From positions 52,287 to 116,286 of the IMG/VR virus record IMGVR_UViG_3300031998_000027: a stretch of 64,000 bases of DNA, one strand, 5' to 3'. Source of the stretch: a virus. Taxonomy: Duplodnaviria; Caudoviricetes. Both the position numbers and the translations under genes were made by a program. The notes under the pieces are model-generated. The model saw only the letters and a program-made list of their open reading frames with translations. It did not search any database and had not been told where the DNA came from. Shown here in pieces: positions 2,983 through 64,000 of this stretch (positions are counted from its first letter, which is position 1; each line of letters begins with the position of its first letter).

Positions 2983-3745
2983 TGAAACAACCTTTTTAGG
3001 GCTTCCTAAGGATTTTCATCATAAGTTTTTAATTTATCCGCCTACCGTTAAACAAGTTGTTGGCAATCCTAAATTCTCTCAATATAAGACATTATTAACC
3101 CTTTCTCAAGAAGAATTAGAAGATGTCTTCATTAAAAATAATAAAGAAAAAGGGTTTAATGATTATGATAAGTTTAAAGTTCCTACACCTTTTGAATATT
3201 TATTTGCTAATAGTTATCATAATAAAGAAGTAGAAGAAATTGCTAAAGAAGCCTTCTATTTCTTTACAAAGCAAGAAATAACTTTTTTATTTGAAAAAGG
3301 CTTGATTTTAATTGGTAATTTAGAAGATGAATTAAAAAGAGTTAATGGTAATGTGGATGCATTAGTCTTTTTAAAAGAAGAAGAATTTTTTGAGTTTCAA
3401 AATGAAATTCGGAATTGTCTTGGAGAAGATAAAGTAGACCCACCTGACCCAACGCTTCATCCTAGGGCGCGCCGCATGAAAGCACTTGCGCGCTATAGAG
3501 ACAAGATAAAAGCTCAAAAAGGAATGGGAATTAATTTAGAGACAACTTTGGTTTCAATTTGCTGTATGGGAATTGGAATTACTCCACTTAATATTGGAGA
3601 GTTAAGCTATGCGTCATTAAGCGAAATAATGCGTCGATATCAAGAGAAAGAAAAATATGAGATTGATATCCGAAGCTTACAAGCTGGCGCAGATTCAAAG
3701 AAAATAAAACCAAAATATTGGATTAGGAATTTAGAAAACAAATAA
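2975..3745 (+). CDS. Hypothetical tail-region protein (possible tail assembly chaperone)
   Basis: 256 aa coupled ORF directly before tail tube gene. Confidence 0.4.
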   Translation: MSNETTFLGLPKDFHHKFLIYPPTVKQVVGNPKFSQYKTLLTLSQEELEDVFIKNNKEKGFNDYDKFKVPTPFEYLFANSYHNKEVEEIAKEAFYFFTKQEITFLFEKGLILIGNLEDELKRVNGNVDALVFLKEEEFFEFQNEIRNCLGEDKVDPPDPTLHPRARRMKALARYRDKIKAQKGMGINLETTLVSICCMGIGITPLNIGELSYASLSEIMRRYQEKEKYEIDIRSLQAGADSKKIKPKYWIRNLENK

Positions 3746-3767
3746 ATAATTAGGAGGCCATAAAAGA

Positions 3768-4667
3768 ATGAATATTCTTGATAGATATGGTATTAAAGAG
3801 GTCGCTGACGTTACCTTCTATGACTTAAATGCTGATGGTACTCCGAAGCATCCTGTTTTATACCTGGACACCTTAAAGGTTACGACTATCGAGCAGACCG
3901 CCGAAGAGACTGAGGCCCGTGGCGGCAAGGGTAATGCGGCCCTTATAGCTTGGGACTATGGTAAGGAGATTAATGTTAGCATTGAGGATGCGCTGTTCTC
4001 TGCGAAGTCCATGGCTATCATGTTTGGTAATGGTACTGTTGCTGAGTATCTGACCACCACTGGTAATGATGCCTATAACGCCTTCATTATGAAGACCGAG
4101 CAGTTTAATCCGACTGGCACTACAGTTCCCACGAATGGCGGTTCTGGTTATAGCGATACTAGCGGTTGGAAGGCTAAGTTTGAGGCTCCCGATGGCAAGC
4201 TTTATACCAAGTATAATCCGAAGTTCTATGATGCCAATGGTAATGTTGCTACTGCCTTTATTGTTGGTCAGACTTACTTCTGCACCTATGATATAAAGGT
4301 CAACGGCGCTGTTATTGAGATTTCTGCTAACAGTTTCCCTGGCACCTATTATGTCACTGGCGATACCTTTGCTCGTGCCGAGGCTTCTGGTAAGGATGAG
4401 TTCTTCCAGTTTATTATCCCCAAGGCTAAGGTTCAGTCCGAGAACACCATTACGCTTGAAGCCGAAGGTGACCCCTCTGTCTTCAACATGAACCTGAAGG
4501 TTCTGCGTCCTGCGGACGGCATTATGATGAAGCTTGTTAAGTATGACCTGGCTGAGACTGGTACTGATAAGGCTGCTGAAGACCTTACCATTTATCACAA
4601 CCACTGGTTAGACGTTCCTGCTACTACGGCGACTCAGGATGCCGAGTATCAGACCGACGATACCTGA
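3768..4667 (+). CDS. Major tail tube protein
   Basis: AGGAGG SD; highly-expressed codon bias; motifs EARGGKGN..LIAWDYGKE and IPKAKV..LEAEGDPSVF; precedes tape measure. Confidence 0.8.
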   Translation: MNILDRYGIKEVADVTFYDLNADGTPKHPVLYLDTLKVTTIEQTAEETEARGGKGNAALIAWDYGKEINVSIEDALFSAKSMAIMFGNGTVAEYLTTTGNDAYNAFIMKTEQFNPTGTTVPTNGGSGYSDTSGWKAKFEAPDGKLYTKYNPKFYDANGNVATAFIVGQTYFCTYDIKVNGAVIEISANSFPGTYYVTGDTFARAEASGKDEFFQFIIPKAKVQSENTITLEAEGDPSVFNMNLKVLRPADGIMMKLVKYDLAETGTDKAAEDLTIYHNHWLDVPATTATQDAEYQTDDT

Positions 4668-57821: not shown

Positions 57822-58545
57822 TCAGTAATGACGAGAGCACTAGAGTAGGAAACTCTCTAAGTGAATGCTGGCTAATTCAGCGAAAGACTCTTTGAGTTAA
57901 CGCCGAGCTAAATTTTGGTGAACACTCAAAAAGATATATTGTATGTATACTTTTTTTACTTATAATTAGAAAGGTAAAAGGTAAAAGGAGGATATTATGC
58001 GTACAGATATTTTTGAGAAAAAAGAAGAAATTTTGCGATGGATTAGTGAAAAGCGTTCAAAAGCATTTATGTGCCGTGAATTACATTGTAAACAAGATAC
58101 CTTAAATCGATATTTAGATAAGATGGGAATTGTTTATGAAGGTAACATGAGCGGGAAAGGATACTCTAAGCAAAAAAATGGTATGAATTTAATTGAATAT
58201 CTTAATAATAGTAATGATATTCAATCTAATAAAGTACGAATTAAATTGCTTAATGAGGGCTATAAAGAACATAAGTGCGAAAATTGTGGTTTAACCGTGT
58301 GGATGGGACAACCCATTCCATTAGAGTTGCACCATATAGATGGTAATAGAGATAATAATACATTAGAAAATTTTCAATTGTTATGTCCTAATTGCCACGC
58401 TTTTACTGATTCATATCGTGGAAAGAATTCTGCCAAATAAATGTGTAGAGACTATATACCAGCCACCTAAGGATATTATCTATGGTGAAGACATAGTCCG
58501 GACTACAACGCAGTAATGCGGCCATGGCGACATGGAGTAGTGAAG
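57822..58545 (+). mobile_element. Group I intron (724 nt) in tRNA-Leu anticodon
   Basis: Follows exon U34, ends in G; core elements AATTCAGCGAA, AACGCCGAGCTAAA, GTAGAGACTA, AAGACATAGTCC. Confidence 0.9.
57997..58440 (+). CDS. Intron-encoded HNH homing endonuclease
   Basis: AGGAGG SD; CENCG..LELHHIDGNRDNN..N..LCPNCH; N-terminal HTH-like segment. Confidence 0.88.
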   Translation: MRTDIFEKKEEILRWISEKRSKAFMCRELHCKQDTLNRYLDKMGIVYEGNMSGKGYSKQKNGMNLIEYLNNSNDIQSNKVRIKLLNEGYKEHKCENCGLTVWMGQPIPLELHHIDGNRDNNTLENFQLLCPNCHAFTDSYRGKNSAK

Positions 58546-58658
58546 AAAATCCCTCGTCAGAAATGACATGCGGGTTCGACCCCCGCCATCGGCACCAAAA
58601 TTTATACATAATCGCTGCTCGTTATGTATATCTTATATAGAAGCAGTAAAACCACGAG

Positions 58659-58848
58659 TATGGTGGTCGGCAAGCCCTAAGTCGTTAAAGGCGAGGTTAA
58701 GCTGAATGGGCATTTTCCTGTGAAATTCAGGTATAGTTAATCAACTGCCCAATGGAATAGTAAATATTGTATAATGTTTATGTTGATTAGCCGAAACGCC
58801 ATAAGGCGTGTATTTAAGGATTGGCGTGGGACCTACGACAGTGCCATA
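58659..58848 (+). ncRNA. Candidate structured ncRNA (~190 nt), unassigned
   Basis: Closing TATGGT.GTCG/CGAC..GCCATA; GTTAATCAAC/GTTGATTAGC; ACGCC-ATAA-GGCGT; crossing TGGGCA/TGCCCA. Confidence 0.45.
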
Positions 58849-58869
58849 TATTTTTTTAGGAGACTTAAA

Positions 58870-59010
58870 ATGAAATTTAGTGAAACACCATTTGGGCTTT
58901 TCCGTTATCGTGGAATTGTCTATTCTAAAATATCAGATACTCAAGCAGTTTTAATTACAATGGGGAAAATTGTAGACTTCAATCCAGATGATGAAGTAGA
59001 AGCATTTTAG
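58870..59010 (+). CDS. Small hypothetical protein (46 aa)
   Basis: AGGAG SD before ATG 58870. Confidence 0.55.
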   Translation: MKFSETPFGLFRYRGIVYSKISDTQAVLITMGKIVDFNPDDEVEAF

Positions 59011-59019
59011 GAGGATATT

Positions 59020-59148
59020 ATGATTCGTTCTGTACTTTATTATGAAAATAGAATTAACCTTTTGAAATACCGACAGAAAGATAATCAAAAGATTATAAAA
59101 AAGCTTGAGCGTTGTCTGCGCGCTGCTAAGGAAAATACGCGCTCATAG
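59020..59148 (+). CDS. Small basic hypothetical protein (42 aa; not in ORF track)
   Basis: AGGAGG SD; MIRSVLYYENRINLLK..; stop lies inside tRNA-Lys. Confidence 0.55.
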   Translation: MIRSVLYYENRINLLKYRQKDNQKIIKKLERCLRAAKENTRS

Positions 59149-59214
59149 TTCAGTCGGTAGAACACTTGCCTTTTAAGCAAGGAGTCGTGGTTTCGAGTAC
59201 CACTGAGCGCACCA
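59139..59214 (+). tRNA. tRNA-Lys(UUU)
   Basis: GCGCTCA/TGAGCGC; CTTGC-CTTTTAA-GCAAG; CCA. Confidence 0.9.
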
Positions 59215-59217
59215 CAT

Positions 59218-59291
59218 GGGGGATTAGCGTAATGGTAGCGCGCTGGGCTTTGAACCCATACGCAGAGGTTCGACTCCTCTATCCCCTGCCA
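59218..59291 (+). tRNA. tRNA-Gln(UUG)
   Basis: TGGG-CTTTGAA-CCCA; GGTTCGACTCC; CCA. Confidence 0.88.
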
Positions 59292-59294
59292 TAT

Positions 59295-59369
59295 ATCCTG
59301 TTAGTATAGTGGTATTATACCAGACTCTTAATCTGTGAGACCTGGGTTCAAATCCCAGACAGGGTACCA
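59295..59369 (+). tRNA. tRNA-Lys(CUU)
   Basis: CAGA-CTCTTAA-TCTG; GGTTCAAATCC; CCA. Confidence 0.85.
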
Positions 59370-59392
59370 ATTTTTTGAAAGGTGTGAATTAT

Positions 59393-59534
59393 ATGAATAT
59401 TCAAAGTTTATCTATTGTTGTGCCAACGGGAAAATGCTGGAACCATTGTAAATTTTGTGTATCTCATATGCATCATGAAGACTAATGGTCATCTCTATTC
59501 TAGATGGGATGATAAAGGTAGTTTAATTTTTTAG
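59393..59534 (+). pseudogene. Internally deleted radical SAM gene remnant
   Basis: MNIQSLSIVVPTGKCWNHCKFCVSHMHHED* (CxxxCxxC), then out-of-frame NGHLYSRWDDKGSLIF*. Confidence 0.65.
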
Positions 59535-59543
59535 GGTGATAAA

Positions 59544-60401
59544 ATGGAAATTATAAAGCCAGAAGGATTATCTTGTATTACAATTTATAAAGTTCCCTTT
59601 GCGGAAATAGAAAAGCTTGACTTCGCGCAATGCGCGCAACCTACAGAAACTCTTGAGCATTTTTATAATCGTCAGGAGAAGAAGCCAAAGCTTCTGTTTA
59701 ATGGCGGTTTCTTTGATATGGATAATGGGAACACTGTCTTTTCTTATGTGGATGAAGGGGAAATTATAAACCTTGATGCATCATTTGTGGAGGGAATTGG
59801 TCTCAAAAATAACAGACCAGTTTTAGACCTTTATAATCCTTCTTATAAAGATTTTATAAGCGGCTATCCCGTTTTAATGAATGATGGTATACCAGTTAAT
59901 ACCTCTATTGGGTCTGAAATTAACTATAAAACGCGTCGTACTATTATGGGTTATGATGAGTTTAACTTCTATATGTTAATTATTGAAAAGCCAGGATATA
60001 ATTTTAAGGAACTGAAAGAACTTCTGTCTATGTTTAATATTCCAAATGCAATTAATTTGGATGGCGGCGGCAGTACAAGAATCCTGGTTGATGGAGTCAA
60101 TAAGAGCGAGCAAGTTTATTCGCGCCCAGTTGACAATGTAATTGCTGTTTATCTTAAAGACCCAGTTATTTATAGGGTTCAGACTGGCGCTTTTACAAAA
60201 AAGGCTAATGCTGAAGCTTATAAAAAAGAAATTCAAAATCTGACTGATACAATTGGAGCCGGTTATAAGAATGCTTACGTTAGGATAGTTGACGGTCTTT
60301 ATAAGGTACAAGTCGGCGCCTTCAGCGTAAAAGCTAATGCTGAACGGGTTTTAAGAGATTTACAAGAAAAAGGTTATAATGCATTTATAACTACTAAATA
60401 A
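59544..60401 (+). CDS. Phosphodiester glycosidase (NAGPA-like) with SPOR domain; candidate cell-wall enzyme/endolysin
   Basis: FNGGFF, RT.MG, AINLDGGGS; two YRVQTGAF/YKVQVGAF SPOR repeats. Confidence 0.8.
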   Translation: MEIIKPEGLSCITIYKVPFAEIEKLDFAQCAQPTETLEHFYNRQEKKPKLLFNGGFFDMDNGNTVFSYVDEGEIINLDASFVEGIGLKNNRPVLDLYNPSYKDFISGYPVLMNDGIPVNTSIGSEINYKTRRTIMGYDEFNFYMLIIEKPGYNFKELKELLSMFNIPNAINLDGGGSTRILVDGVNKSEQVYSRPVDNVIAVYLKDPVIYRVQTGAFTKKANAEAYKKEIQNLTDTIGAGYKNAYVRIVDGLYKVQVGAFSVKANAERVLRDLQEKGYNAFITTK

Positions 60402-60402
60402 T

Positions 60403-60488
60403 GGAAGCGTGTCCGAGAGGTTTATGGTGAAGGTCCTGAAAACCTTTGTACGAAAGTACCGTGGGTTCAAATCCTACCGCTTCCGCCA
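60403..60488 (+). tRNA. tRNA-Ser(UGA), C33 variant
   Basis: GGAAGCG/CGCTTCC, G73; AAGGT-CCTGAAA-ACCTT; long variable arm. Confidence 0.88.
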
Positions 60489-60491
60489 TAC

Positions 60492-60578
60492 GGAGGATTG
60501 GCGTAATGGTAACGCAGTGGATTGCTAATCCATCCTACCTTTTTGGTAGTACAGGTTCGATTCCTGTATCCTCCGCCA
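60492..60578 (+). tRNA. tRNA-Ser(GCU)
   Basis: GTGGA-TTGCTAA-TCCAT; long variable arm; CCA. Confidence 0.9.
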
Positions 60579-60581
60579 TTT

Positions 60582-60656
60582 GCTGATGTAGCTCAGCGGC
60601 AGAGCGGCCGCCTTGTAAGCGGCAGGTCGAGATTTCAAAATTCTCCATCAGCTCCA
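60582..60656 (+). tRNA. tRNA-Thr(UGU)
   Basis: GCCGC-CTTGTAA-GCGGC; GCTGATG/CATCAGC; CCA; atypical T arm. Confidence 0.85.
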
Positions 60657-60700
60657 AATTTGATTTTTTTTTAAATTTTATATATAATATATATAGAAAG
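60657..60700 (+). promoter_or_regulatory. sigmaA-like promoter
   Basis: TTGATT-17-TATAAT..TAGAAAG. Confidence 0.6.
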
Positions 60701-60720
60701 TTAAGAAAAGAGGTTTTCTG

Positions 60721-60912
60721 GTGTATATTTGTCCAATTTGTAACAGAACCTTTGATATTGAAGATCAAATAGCAAAACATTCTTTAAGGTGCTGGCGGGA
60801 ACATAATCCCTATCACAAATCTAAGCCTGCGCCGCATACAACAGATCTTAATGAGAGAAAAGTTAATAATGAAGTTTTAGATTTTTTTGCTAATCTACAG
60901 AAAGGAAATTAA
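60721..60912 (+). CDS. C2H2-like Zn-finger protein
   Basis: YICPICNRTF..HSLRC. Confidence 0.65.
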   Translation: MYICPICNRTFDIEDQIAKHSLRCWREHNPYHKSKPAPHTTDLNERKVNNEVLDFFANLQKGN

Positions 60913-60913
60913 A

Positions 60914-61264
60914 ATGCAAGAAGTAAGAATTAAAACTCATTTGATAATTACGGGTATGCATGAGGAATATTTTGTAGATTGGTGCGGCAAGATAGCTAAC
61001 ACAAAACCTCTTCTTAAAAATGGTCTTCCTATCTTCGTTATAATTGGGTCTGAGGCGCGCATGGAACTCAACACAATTGATATAAAGAGAATTGAGGAAA
61101 ATGCGAAGAGGATGACTCATCCGCATGGGCGTCAGGCAGTAACAACTGACATCGCGCATATTTATATTAAAGAGGAAGATGGGAGTGAAACTCTAATGGG
61201 CCGAGTTATTCACAACCATGTGAAAGAATATCGGCAGATGTATGATAAGTTTGAGAAGATATAA
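60914..61264 (+). CDS. Hypothetical protein
   Basis: AAAGGA SD before ATG 60914. Confidence 0.6.
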   Translation: MQEVRIKTHLIITGMHEEYFVDWCGKIANTKPLLKNGLPIFVIIGSEARMELNTIDIKRIEENAKRMTHPHGRQAVTTDIAHIYIKEEDGSETLMGRVIHNHVKEYRQMYDKFEKI

Positions 61265-61320
61265 AAATTTGATTTTCTTTTAATTTTTTTTGATATAATA
61301 ATTATAGAAGGGAAAATAGT

Positions 61321-61581
61321 ATGGAAATAATAACCGACTCTTTTAATAAAGAAGGGAAGTGCCCCGATTGTGGATCTACTTTCTTTTATAACCTTAATGA
61401 TATAGAAAAAATTAAAATGGAAAATGCTATCGCAAAAGAAACAGCAGAAAAGATCCTTGAACGATCCTCTATTATAAAAGGACAGTGGTTTCAGATATCT
61501 GGAGAAATGATTAAGTGTCCTTGCTGTTCTAAGCATATAGTAATAAAAAATCCTTCAATTGCTTTTAAATCACATTCTTAA
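61321..61581 (+). CDS. Zn-ribbon protein
   Basis: CPDCG..CPCC; upstream promoter motif at 61265-61310. Confidence 0.6.
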   Translation: MEIITDSFNKEGKCPDCGSTFFYNLNDIEKIKMENAIAKETAEKILERSSIIKGQWFQISGEMIKCPCCSKHIVIKNPSIAFKSHS

Positions 61582-61637
61582 AATTTGAAAAATTCAGAAA
61601 ATTCTGATATAATATATATAGAAAGTGAGAGAAAAAG

Positions 61638-61820
61638 ATGGCTTATCAGATTGGTGATACAATTCGTATTATCTCAATGGATGGTGAACCGCAGTATAGC
61701 GGGCGCGAAGGTATTATTGACCACATTGATGATGCTGGTCAGCTCCATGGAACTTGGGGTGGACTTGCAGTAATACCTGGCGAAGACCATTTTACTGTTA
61801 TTAGAAAAGCTTCTAATTAA
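61638..61820 (+). CDS. Small SH3/KOW-like protein (DUF4314-like)
   Basis: IGDTIRIISM..G.IDHIDDAGQLHGTWG..IPGED; promoter motif at 61581-61625. Confidence 0.6.
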   Translation: MAYQIGDTIRIISMDGEPQYSGREGIIDHIDDAGQLHGTWGGLAVIPGEDHFTVIRKASN

Positions 61821-61869
61821 AAGGTTCCCACTCGCCTACCAGCTTTTGCTGCGTGAAAGAGTGTTTTGA

Positions 61870-61918
61870 AAATTTGATTTTTCTATAAATTTTTGATATA
61901 ATATTTATAGAAAGTCAA
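61870..61918 (+). promoter_or_regulatory. Promoter driving the ncRNA block, inside an inverted repeat
   Basis: TTGATT-17-(TGA)TATAAT..TAGAAAG; TTGATTTTTCTATAAAT/ATTTATAGAAAGTCAA. Confidence 0.7.
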
Positions 61919-61970
61919 GAGAGGCTTTGGACTTAGGAAATCCTTGTAAGTAGTTGTTTAGGGACAATAA

Positions 61971-62225
61971 CCTCTTAAATTCAATAGGCTCGCGGTCAAC
62001 TGAGACAGCCTTGGGACGATGGCACAATAAGTGCGCGCTGAGTTGTGTTCTTGGGTTGTAGGGAAATACGTCCTATATGACGATATAGGAGAATACCTTA
62101 CGGATTTAATTATCTCCAGTAAACCTATTGAATTTTGAGGTCGTAATGACTTCCCTACGGCCTCTATGGCGCTAGTATGGACAGCCTGCTCGTGGCGGCG
62201 CTGCTTACGCAAATTTTAGTCCATA
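61971..62225 (+). ncRNA. Structured RNA domain upstream of the ROOL-like RNA
   Basis: CCTCTTAAATTCAATAGG/CCTATTGAATTTTGAGG helix; crossing GTTGTAGGGAA/TTCCCTACGGC; TCCTATAT-GACG-ATATAGGA. Confidence 0.55.
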
Positions 62226-62226
62226 G

Positions 62227-62816
62227 TCAGTATTATATACCTCGGTGAAGACGAATACCATCGCGCCGAGAAGTCGTCCGGTCTGCGGATTGAACTAGAA
62301 TTGGGAAGATAGAGGATACCCTATCGCTCCTATAGATGGCTTCTATCGTGAGATAGAAGTTGCCTGCACCAAAGGGTGTGGCTAGAGGATGACTGTGCTG
62401 ACAAAGTCGCAATCAAAAATACTGTCTCATCGCTTCCACAATAGAAGTTAAGCGTTAAAAGCGTAAACTGAAGCCAAGTTAGGATGTTCAGCGTGGCAAC
62501 TGGGTCAAACCTTGGTAAAGCCAATAAGGGAGTCTGTAGTGAGGTCATAGTAATATGACTATAAGATGAGGTCAAGGTGCGAGTAGCCCAGATACAGAGA
62601 CTCAGAAACTGATAGGGATAATTATTGAAAATTATTTTACTTTTCTGAACGGTGGGTGAAAGTTAGAGGTAATCAATCCTCTCAAGGCTTGTGCCGCTAT
62701 GCGGCAAGGGCAAGAAGTTATAGGGTCGCTACCTATGGCTCAGACTTGTTCTCCTTGTGATTGAAAATGGTTGAAGGCTTAACAGTTGGTAGGGCGAAGG
62801 CCCATATAATTACTGA
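62227..62816 (+). ncRNA. Large ornate ncRNA, ROOL-like (GOLLD as alternative)
   Basis: ~590 nt closed by TCAGTATTATAT/ATATAATTACTGA; GNRA-capped hairpins; no credible ORF; in a phage tRNA array. Confidence 0.65.
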
Positions 62817-62962
62817 ACCCCTTTTCAATATCGCTCCCTATTAATTATGCGCGAGGGACTTGAGCAACTGTAAGAGAATTCCATGAAAATGGCTTGTACT
62901 GACAAAACGCGCGGGTGAGTTTAATTGTCTTCTCACCCTTATGTCAAAAAGACAATTTATAT

Positions 62963-63036
62963 AGAGGATGTGGTGTAAGAGTAGCATACAACATTTGGGA
63001 TGTTGTGGAGCCGTGCAAATCGGACATCTTCTACCA
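62963..63036 (+). tRNA. tRNA-Pro(UGG), atypical
   Basis: CAACA-TTTGGGA-TGTTG; AGAGGATG/CATCTTCT plus ACCA; T-loop TGCAAAT. Confidence 0.72.
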
Positions 63037-63185
63037 TTTAATTTCTATTTTGAAACGGTTCAGGTCCTATCGGCCGATTAGGCAGGCGAGGGAAGTGAGG
63101 TAGGTTGCGAAAGCGTAAAATCCTCCGCCTTGTAAGCGTAGTTATGAAACATGAACTCCGCCTAATCTTTAAAATAGAAATTAAA
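63037..63185 (+). ncRNA. Candidate structured ncRNA (~150 nt), unassigned
   Basis: 18-bp closing helix TTTAATTTCTATTTTGAA/TTTAAAATAGAAATTAAA; GATTAGGC/GCCTAATC; AGGCG/CGCCT. Confidence 0.5.
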
Positions 63186-63278
63186 ACCAGGCCAAGTATG
63201 CTACTGTTGAAAAACCCTAACCGATAGGGGTGTGTGATTTACACACTTAATCACACAAAATAGCCTGTTAGTAAACGC

Positions 63279-63547
63279 CCTTTTAATTAAGGTATGGTTG
63301 AAAGCAGAGCAAATCGTTAACGGAGGTAGTGCTCATGATTATGATAAGAACTTCCCGCAACGAGAGAAATCCGAATATTCGGATTTGACGTCCGCTTAGC
63401 GTCATTAAATAAATGAGCCTTCCGTCGTAGACATGGATTTTTTAAGAAAAATCTTTTTCAACTACCACCGGCACTCAACCTCGGTGTCCTTTGAGATATG
63501 CGGGTCAGTGATATGTGGCATTGTGGCTAACGACGTTAAATAAAAGG
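63279..63547 (+). ncRNA. Candidate multi-pseudoknot ncRNA (~270 nt), unassigned
   Basis: CCTTTTAATTAA/TTAAATAAAAGG closure; ACGGAGG/CCTTCCGT; GCTCAT/ATGAGC; CCCGCA/TGCGGG. Confidence 0.5.
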
Positions 63548-63576
63548 CAAAGTAAAAAAGATTTTTATTAATAGAT

Positions 63577-63650
63577 GGCGGGTTGGTGTAATGGTAGCAT
63601 AGTAGACTCATTATCTACCGATTTGAGTTCAAGTCTCAAGCCCGCAACCA
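63577..63650 (+). tRNA. tRNA with CAU anticodon (Met or Ile2), atypical
   Basis: GTAGA-CTCATTA-TCTAC; G1:A72 mismatch; U37; CCA. Confidence 0.8.
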
Positions 63651-63654
63651 TTAC

Positions 63655-63678
63655 GCGCCCTTCGTGGGCGCATTTTTT
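63655..63678 (+). terminator. Terminator-like hairpin
   Basis: GCGCCC-TTCGT-GGGCGC-ATTTTTT. Confidence 0.6.
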
Positions 63679-63684
63679 ATATTT

Positions 63685-63760
63685 GCTCCCATCGACAAGC
63701 GGCCAAAGTCACTGCCCTTTCACGGCAGAGTCGCCAGTTCAAATCTGGCTGGGAGTACCA
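63685..63760 (+). tRNA. tRNA-Glu(UUC)
   Basis: CTGCC-CTTTCAC-GGCAG; GCTCCCA/TGGGAGT; CCA. Confidence 0.9.
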
Positions 63761-63774
63761 AAAAGGAGAATAAT

Positions 63775-64000
63775 ATGGCTGAAAAGGAAATTTCCGAAGT
63801 TATTGAATTTATCCGGCGCCGCTTCCCTCAAGATTGTAATTGGCTTAATGGTAATTGCTATTGGTTTGCCGCAATTTTGAGGGCGCGTTTTCCTTTTCTA
63901 AAGATTTTTTATATGCCCATGTCTGGCCACTATGTGGCAGGCGCGCAAAATACGTACTTCGACTGGACTGGAAAAGTTACTCCTTCTGAGCCAGTCATAC
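63775..64000 (+). CDS. Hypothetical protein (runs off window)
   Basis: AAGGAG SD; MAEKEISEVIEFIRRRF..GNCYWFA..GHYV..FDWTG. Confidence 0.6.
   Translation, partial: MAEKEISEVIEFIRRRFPQDCNWLNGNCYWFAAILRARFPFLKIFYMPMSGHYVAGAQNTYFDWTGKVTPSEPVI

Follow-up and report, generated by a model that had tools for sequence, protein, structure and literature searches.

Organization of the locus

The DNA analysed here, called the window, makes up the rightmost 64 kb of a virus record of 116,286 bp. Towards its right end lies a promoter-to-terminator unit of about 1.77 kb that is free of open reading frames and enriched in GC (0.41-0.46 across 61900-63700, compared with 0.30-0.36 in the flanking coding DNA; the tRNA clusters are likewise raised). 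Its parts follow one another in the order promoter, Y-shaped module (Y-module), hairpin domain, conserved block, ROOL RNA gene, hairpin, tRNA-Pro, stem-closed element, pseudoknotted element, tRNA-Met and terminator (Table 1). The same order was found in two relatives, L004 (IMG/VR, 32.9 kb) and L200 (a metagenome contig).

Table 1. Features of the RNA unit and of the ROOL RNA gene within it (window coordinates).
Feature	Position	Strand	Evidence or remark
Sigma-70/SigA-type promoter, extended -10 (TTGATT-17-TGATATAAT)	61874-61902	+	Conserved in L004 and L200
Y-shaped module of ~62 nt, closing helix AAGAGAGG/CCTCTT	61917-61978	+	Alignment A5, 27 distinct copies
Variable hairpin domain of the leader, closed by AAATTCAATAGG/CCTATTGAATTT	61977-62136	+	Closing stem conserved in L004 and L200
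Conserved 3' block of the leader	62167-62216	+	Nearly invariant in window, L004 and L200
ROOL RNA gene (RF03087), full length	62217-62823	+	Rfam match; 79 pairs/50 compensatory; pseudoknot covariation; natural variants
ROOL terminal helix	62227-62238/62804-62816	+	Strands of 12 nt and 13 nt, with one bulge
ROOL hairpin GGCTTCTATC-GTGA-GATAGAAGTT (GUGA tetraloop)	62338-62361	+	Rfam ROOL consensus helix
ROOL helix GAGTCTGTA/TACAGAGACTC	62530-62538/62593-62603	+	Outside Rfam consensus line; core CUGUA/UACAG covaries
ROOL hairpin GGTCATA-GTAA-TATGACT (GUAA tetraloop)	62543-62560	+	Rfam ROOL consensus helix
ROOL stem AGAGG/CCTCT, bearing the invariant GUAAUCAAUCC loop	62664-62668/62678-62682	+	Rfam ROOL consensus helix
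ROOL stem TGCCGC/GCGGCA	62692-62697/62701-62706	+	Rfam ROOL consensus helix
ROOL hairpin GGGC-GAAG-GCCC (GAAG tetraloop)	62792-62803	+	Rfam ROOL consensus helix
Hairpin GGGTGAG-N12-CTCACCC in the ROOL/tRNA-Pro interval	62915-62940	+	Conserved in L004 and an X4 contig
tRNA-Pro(UGG), divergent T-arm	62963-63036	+	cmscan 36.5 bits against gathering score 29; relaxed-threshold ARAGORN
Stem-closed element (TTTAATTTCTATTTT/AAAATAGAAATTAAA), 15-bp stem	63037-63186	+	Fold
Pseudoknotted element, ~140 nt	63424-63561	+	Stem A 63425-63428/63530-63533 crosses stem B 63452-63458/63555-63561
tRNA-Met(CAU)	63577-63650	+	Rfam scan and ARAGORN
Intrinsic terminator GCGCCC-TTCGT-GGGCGC + T-run	63655-63680	+	Only strong same-strand terminator after the promoter

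The original prediction had placed a large structured RNA in a tRNA array, and nine tRNAs were indeed counted within 59139-63760. Eight of them were returned by ARAGORN and Rfam. The ninth, tRNA-Pro(UGG), was overlooked by ARAGORN at its default settings and by the Rfam scan of the whole window, and was recovered when the small region was searched alone; a tRNA-Pro(UGG) occupies the equivalent place in L004 and L200. The RNA unit is followed by a gene for a 97-aa YunG-like protein (PF24591), which occupies 63775-63999 and continues at the start of the genome record. In L004 and L006, homologues of this protein (60% and 45% identity, respectively) follow closely after ROOL or the tRNA block.

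The record is annotated with a terminal repeat, which is an exact 127-bp assembly overlap. The genome was therefore assembled as a circle and the place of ROOL near the end of the record is arbitrary; a reading of this direct repeat as a true genome end near ROOL was rejected. The phage encodes topoisomerase II, a DnaB-type helicase, RecJ, a Sak4-like annealase and an ATP-dependent ligase, together with homing endonucleases and an anaerobic ribonucleotide reductase. Its RecJ-like protein is nearest, at less than 40% identity, to proteins of Bacillus, Staphylococcus, Lactococcus, Enterococcus and Enterocloster phages, and the locus occurs in runs of bovine and sheep gut metagenomes. Because of these phage genes, the relatives of RecJ and the occurrence in gut metagenomes, the host is likely to be an anaerobic member of the Bacillota of the rumen.

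A full-length ROOL RNA gene

When the whole window was scanned against Rfam 15 with cmscan, a ROOL match (RF03087) was obtained at 62217-62823 on the plus strand, with 319.8 bits compared with a gathering score of 99.1 and an E-value of 9.1e-73. The match runs from end to end of the model (positions 1-574 of 574) at about three times the curated threshold. It was reproduced in whole-genome and regional Rfam scans, and ROOL is present once in the genome. The original prediction had preferred ROOL to GOLLD on the grounds of length and context, had proposed a comparison with the Rfam covariance models of both, and had set the ends of the RNA at 62227 and 62816. The comparison bears out this preference: the ROOL match is full length, and no GOLLD match was found at E<=1 within 58500-64000 or at the gathering threshold across the whole window. 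The proposed ends lie within 10 nt of those of the model match. Other Rfam families, GOLLD included, were ruled out for 62217-62823, where ROOL is the sole family that matches.

The strings conserved in the model, GUGAAGA, GGAUAC, CCACAAUAGA, GCCAAUAAGG, AGUAGCCCA, GGGUGAAAGUU, GUAAUCAAUCC, GCUCAGACUU and GGGCGAAGGCCC, are identical in the window ROOL. Some base pairs in the 5' third were scored as non-canonical in the cmscan alignment. An internal linker at about 62598-62650 corresponds to the unconserved loop of the model, and both its length and its sequence vary among seven ROOLs.

The helices that had been listed beforehand were all located by direct reading at the coordinates given for them, and in the cmscan alignment all but one fall on helices of the Rfam ROOL consensus (Table 1). 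In the remaining one, CUGUA (62534-62538) and UACAG (62593-62597) connect an unpaired stretch with the flank of the variable linker, and this core is therefore a pseudoknot. In a position-specific test, seven different 4-mers were found at the 5' site among nine ROOLs, and the exact Watson-Crick complement stood at the cognate 3' site in eight of the nine, compared with 4 of 68 non-cognate pairings. When a generic longest-helix test was applied to this pseudoknot, it did not tell cognate and non-cognate pairs apart.

Covariation among homologs had been named as a further check on the structure. IMG/VR was probed with a ROOL motif, which gave seven phage contigs, each carrying a full-length ROOL. 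RNAalifold, run on seven ROOLs including that of the window, predicted 79 pairs, 50 of which are retained through double changes. Natural variants of the window ROOL point the same way. C62343U and G62356A, found in runs X3 and X4, affect opposite partners of a single base pair in the GUGA hairpin and compensate each other. The same ROOL is carried, with 17 differences in 720 nt, by an 86-kb contig from an independent bovine-gut sample of 2024; a faeces contig of 2023 also carries it and shares C62343U and G62356A with the 86-kb contig, so the RNA persists in independent samples. We regard 62217-62823 on the plus strand as a functional ROOL RNA gene, with a probability of about 0.88, in a virulent-type phage of about 116 kb that infects an anaerobic, probably Bacillota, bacterium of the rumen.

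Promoter, leader and modular layout

A promoter upstream of the RNA had also been predicted. Such a site is present; its position was corrected, since it lies 315 nt upstream of ROOL with a conserved structured leader between the two. It is the only good same-strand site before ROOL (10/12, with TG), and transcription would start near 61909. Many contigs from other samples contain the surrounding cassette (61869-61913). It is a reused module, because the match of those contigs is confined to the cassette and stops at its edges. Within the window, two near-identical promoter cassettes (TGATATAATAT...ATAGAAAGT) are seen, at 61585-61613, where the cassette drives a DUF4314 gene, and at 61874-61902, at the head of the RNA operon.

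The whole leader folds with z = -2.15. The interior of its hairpin domain is diverged in L004 and L200, and the domain is absent or replaced in runs X4 and X3; in the 3' block, the X3 and X4 contigs have no listed difference from the window. In close relatives from other samples, loss or replacement involves not only this hairpin domain but also 62938-63255 (including tRNA-Pro) or the block 63037-63348. The RNA unit is thus modular. At about 3560-3810 on the minus strand of L200, the leader of the ROOL relative has an insertion of about 250 nt, which contains a T-arm-like GGTTCGACTCCCGC and may be a fragment derived from a tRNA or a tmRNA. A 15-mer leader probe returned mostly chance matches and became usable once a second block was required, and a search for relatives through the neighbouring NAGPA/SPOR protein confirmed no locus.

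Proposed transcription and processing

We lean towards a model in which ROOL would be made by host RNA polymerase from 61874-61902, as part of a protein-free polycistronic unit of about 1.77 kb, and would then be cut out by the host nucleases that process tRNAs. Host RNA polymerase would start at the extended -10 promoter, and a single transcript would read from the Y-module through ROOL, tRNA-Pro, the further modules and tRNA-Met to the terminator at 63655-63680. RNase P, RNase Z and an endonuclease, in freeing the neighbouring tRNAs, would also excise ROOL. Co-transcription and processing are deduced here from the positions of promoter and terminator and from synteny. This model of one processed unit fits the observations that in L007 ROOL begins 27 nt past a tRNA, and that elsewhere ROOL abuts the pseudoknotted element. 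The unit may also contain an internal promoter of low strength or a terminator that escaped recognition. One candidate is the hairpin at 62915-62940, which is not a typical terminator because it has no U-tract; it was not called in the terminator scan.

Contigs containing the ROOL core of relatives were found in two bovine metatranscriptome libraries; these are contigs and not reads, RNA libraries can hold DNA, and the ROOL of the window phage is uncovered in them. Run X8 holds two exact 151-nt contigs of the phage, one of which begins upstream of the predicted start site. These contigs and the uncovered stretches speak neither for nor against transcription, contigs being unable to show starts, ends, strand or level.

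It may be asked whether the leader is removed at all. If its ~310 nt were kept, the product would be a 5'-extended ROOL of about 915 nt with an extra domain outside the cage that could act as a cargo or targeting arm. The leader and ROOL are conserved together in the window, L004 and L200, with no promoter or tRNA between them; TATGGAC in the 3' block of the leader (62177-62183) is able to pair with GTCCATA among the first ROOL bases (62220-62226); and fusions engineered at the other, 3' end of ROOL are tolerated and radially displayed (PMC12515178). However, close relatives gain and lose the middle part of the leader freely, and most ROOLs have no such leader. The Y-module, moreover, stands alone before tRNAs and mRNAs elsewhere, which suggests a separable unit. 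Retention of the leader seems unlikely to us.

Alternatively, ROOL might be transcribed independently from a promoter and terminator of its own that escaped recognition, the leader and the downstream modules being separate small-RNA genes that happen to be near. Phage tRNA islands are built as mosaics from portable modules, and in another contig the element 63050-63176 stands directly behind the same type of promoter, which would suit this arrangement. Nevertheless, the scan of the plus strand found no promoter-like site in 61902-62217 and only weak terminator-like sites in 62823-63655, and the synteny is conserved across the window, L004 and L200. An independent ROOL transcript is thus distinctly improbable, and the processed polycistronic unit remains the model that we prefer.

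Integrity and coding potential

The ROOL might be a decaying remnant without function that is passively carried in the tRNA island. The non-canonical pairs in its 5' third could be taken in this sense, and so could the dispensability of ROOL in one bacterium, Ligilactobacillus salivarius, where it is non-essential according to a passage of PMC12286853 that cites this result. A remnant would hardly be expected to match the model over its full length at three times the threshold, with the conserved loops intact and with compensatory substitutions both among close relatives and between samples, and we consider decay very improbable. No credible ORF was found in 61821-63576, in agreement with the original prediction for the ROOL region. 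That this region codes for protein is next to impossible: its longest frame (81 aa, minus strand, 62330-62575) is open and has a TTG start, but it shows no third-position bias against L004 (12/9/12 substitutions over the codon positions), is broken by a 2-nt indel in that comparison, and lies where the plus strand is fully accounted for by ROOL.

RNA modules flanking ROOL

The Y-module was collected in 27 distinct copies from IMG/VR and metagenomes. A near-invariant 48-nt core (GGCUURGGUAAGAGGACCUUGUAAGUAGUUGAUAGUGGAACAAUAACC) is enclosed in a closing helix that covaries, three of its pairs occurring in four Watson-Crick types each with 7-14 double changes (alignment A5). In the window the module begins about 10 nt after the predicted transcription start. 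Elsewhere it precedes tRNA genes (by 5-10 nt), a tmRNA-like start or a Shine-Dalgarno sequence (by 15-20 nt); the protein genes whose SD-ATG it precedes in other phages include an HU-like gene and a 176-aa ORF. Candidate roles for it are those of a riboswitch-like aptamer, of a put-like antitermination element, and of a handle for processing or stability.

The pseudoknotted element was found in 61 IMG/VR contigs, mostly from phages of 80-180 kb. Its crossing stems surround an invariant AACTACCACCGGC...GATATGTGGC, and the invariant core is AACUACCACCGGC...GAUAUGUGGC. Across 48 distinct copies, 91.2% of cells are paired; shuffles gave 64.6%, and none of 500 reached the observed value. Covariation scored 0.573, and slid controls did not exceed 0.112. 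Three positions covary jointly (CAYGG / AGYGG / GCRAAG), hinting at a base triple or at alternative pairings. A reading of 63424-63561 as a group I intron, in which GAUAUG resembles J8/7, was rejected because the order of the helices (A5', B5', hairpin, A3', B3') does not fit P3/P7/P8. Conservation with L004 around the element begins at about 63322. Within this conserved stretch, 63335-63388 contains a frame of 17 codons with GGAGG 8 nt upstream, which is open and of equal length in L004, and also hairpins with compensatory changes (GGAGGU/ACUUCC; AAAUCCGA/UCGGAUUU compared with AUCCAA/UUGGGU). A micro-ORF may be present there, or the stretch may belong to the structured RNA.

Inside arrays, the pseudoknotted element is spaced as a tRNA would be. 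ROOL was present in the fetched flank at 21 of 62 loci of the element, and all 11 ROOLs tested there are full-length Rfam ROOLs; in six other phages the element directly touches ROOL. Conversely, among six lineages of ROOL loci that were fetched without reference to the modules, three have the pseudoknotted element and two the Y-module. The link between the pseudoknotted element and ROOL is frequent and not obligate.

Part of the stem-closed element, 63047-63109, recurs at 12 other phage tRNA-island loci with 79-90% identity. The block is absent from the X3 and X4 relatives, and the element was seen in contigs of two bovine metatranscriptome libraries. A 23-mer taken from 63037-63186 found no match in IMG/VR.

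Rfam holds no match for the Y-module, the pseudoknotted element or the 63047-63109 module, and a full-text literature search with the core motifs of the first two yielded irrelevant matches only. The 62-nt Y-module and the ~140-nt pseudoknotted element look undescribed.

Probable cage assembly and possible function

The original prediction had described ROOL RNAs as large non-coding RNAs that are found near tRNA genes in phages and Firmicutes and form RNA-only cages, which agrees with Kretsch et al. 2025 (PMC12286853). Cages are known from cryo-EM and mass photometry of other family members: the env-120 and Enterococcus faecalis ROOLs are octamers and the Ligilactobacillus salivarius ROOL is a hexamer, with the variable linker inside the cage and the termini facing outward (PMC12286853, PMC12990946). 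By analogy, the ~600-nt RNA of the window probably self-assembles without protein into a hollow dihedral cage, hexameric or octameric, in which the variable linker would be inside and the 5' and 3' ends would point outward. The 3' fusions mentioned above, which include a tRNA precursor, leave assembly intact (PMC12515178). Therefore, operon precursors that are unprocessed or only partly processed could still assemble.

The literature up to late 2026 contains no test of any ROOL function. Since ROOL shares the transcript of tRNAs, the cage would be made in stoichiometry with the phage tRNAs. This implied co-production, together with the constant linkage to tRNA genes, is the reason for proposing a role in translation. 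The cage might be an abundant particle of infection time that serves the translation or tRNA economy of the phage and encloses, protects or sequesters tRNA-sized RNAs or a factor of translation or defence; we offer this as a speculation that is unlikely to be right. A further idea, which we judge improbable, is that of a composite ROOL. The Y-module and the 3' block paired with the 5' end of ROOL would stay attached on the exterior of the cage, and ROOL, the pseudoknotted element and the Y-module would act as a set of interacting RNA tools of phage tRNA islands and not be unrelated neighbours. If this were true, ROOL would serve as a natural scaffold for the display of a recognition handle shared with phage tRNA and mRNA units, or that handle would regulate it.

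The assignment to ROOL adds little by itself, and its value lies in the context. The locus offers a complete, circularly assembled phage with a compact all-RNA operon from promoter to terminator, whose order is conserved in the window, L004 and L200. Precursor processing and co-production with tRNAs thereby become directly testable. The Y-module and the pseudoknotted element, both without an Rfam family, accompany ROOL and tRNAs and are leads that could eventually explain the purpose of the cages.

Comparison with known systems

ROOL RNA was first found in the tRNA islands of rumen phages. The family (RF03087) reportedly goes back to work of Weinberg et al. and of Cousin et al., both in 2017. 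The ROOL of the window is of an already known kind, a member of a structurally solved family in its canonical context.

It shares with the known ROOLs the same helices, the conserved loops, the internal variable linker and the pseudoknot (PMC12286853, PMC12990946), as well as the habitat, cattle rumen or gut, and the position in a phage tRNA island. It is about 82% identical to its nearest IMG/VR relative, that of L004, and is therefore new in sequence. It differs from the other six aligned ROOLs in a longer hairpin after CCACAAUAGA. The structured 5' leader of about 310 nt between promoter and ROOL, conserved in the lineage of the window, is missing from most ROOLs.

Two other RNAs invite comparison. 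Drum RNA (RF02958), like the modules that flank ROOL here, is a small structured RNA interspersed with phage tRNAs; it is absent from the window. In three contigs it is located beside ROOL and the pseudoknotted element (L123, 4600-4727; L131, 393-520; L135, 6116-6209), and because the three co-occur there, several families of structured RNA share the niche of the tRNA island. GOLLD resembles ROOL in being a large ornate phage RNA of tRNA islands that forms an RNA-only cage. It differs from ROOL in its greater length (>800 nt), its fold and its assembly into 10-14-mers.
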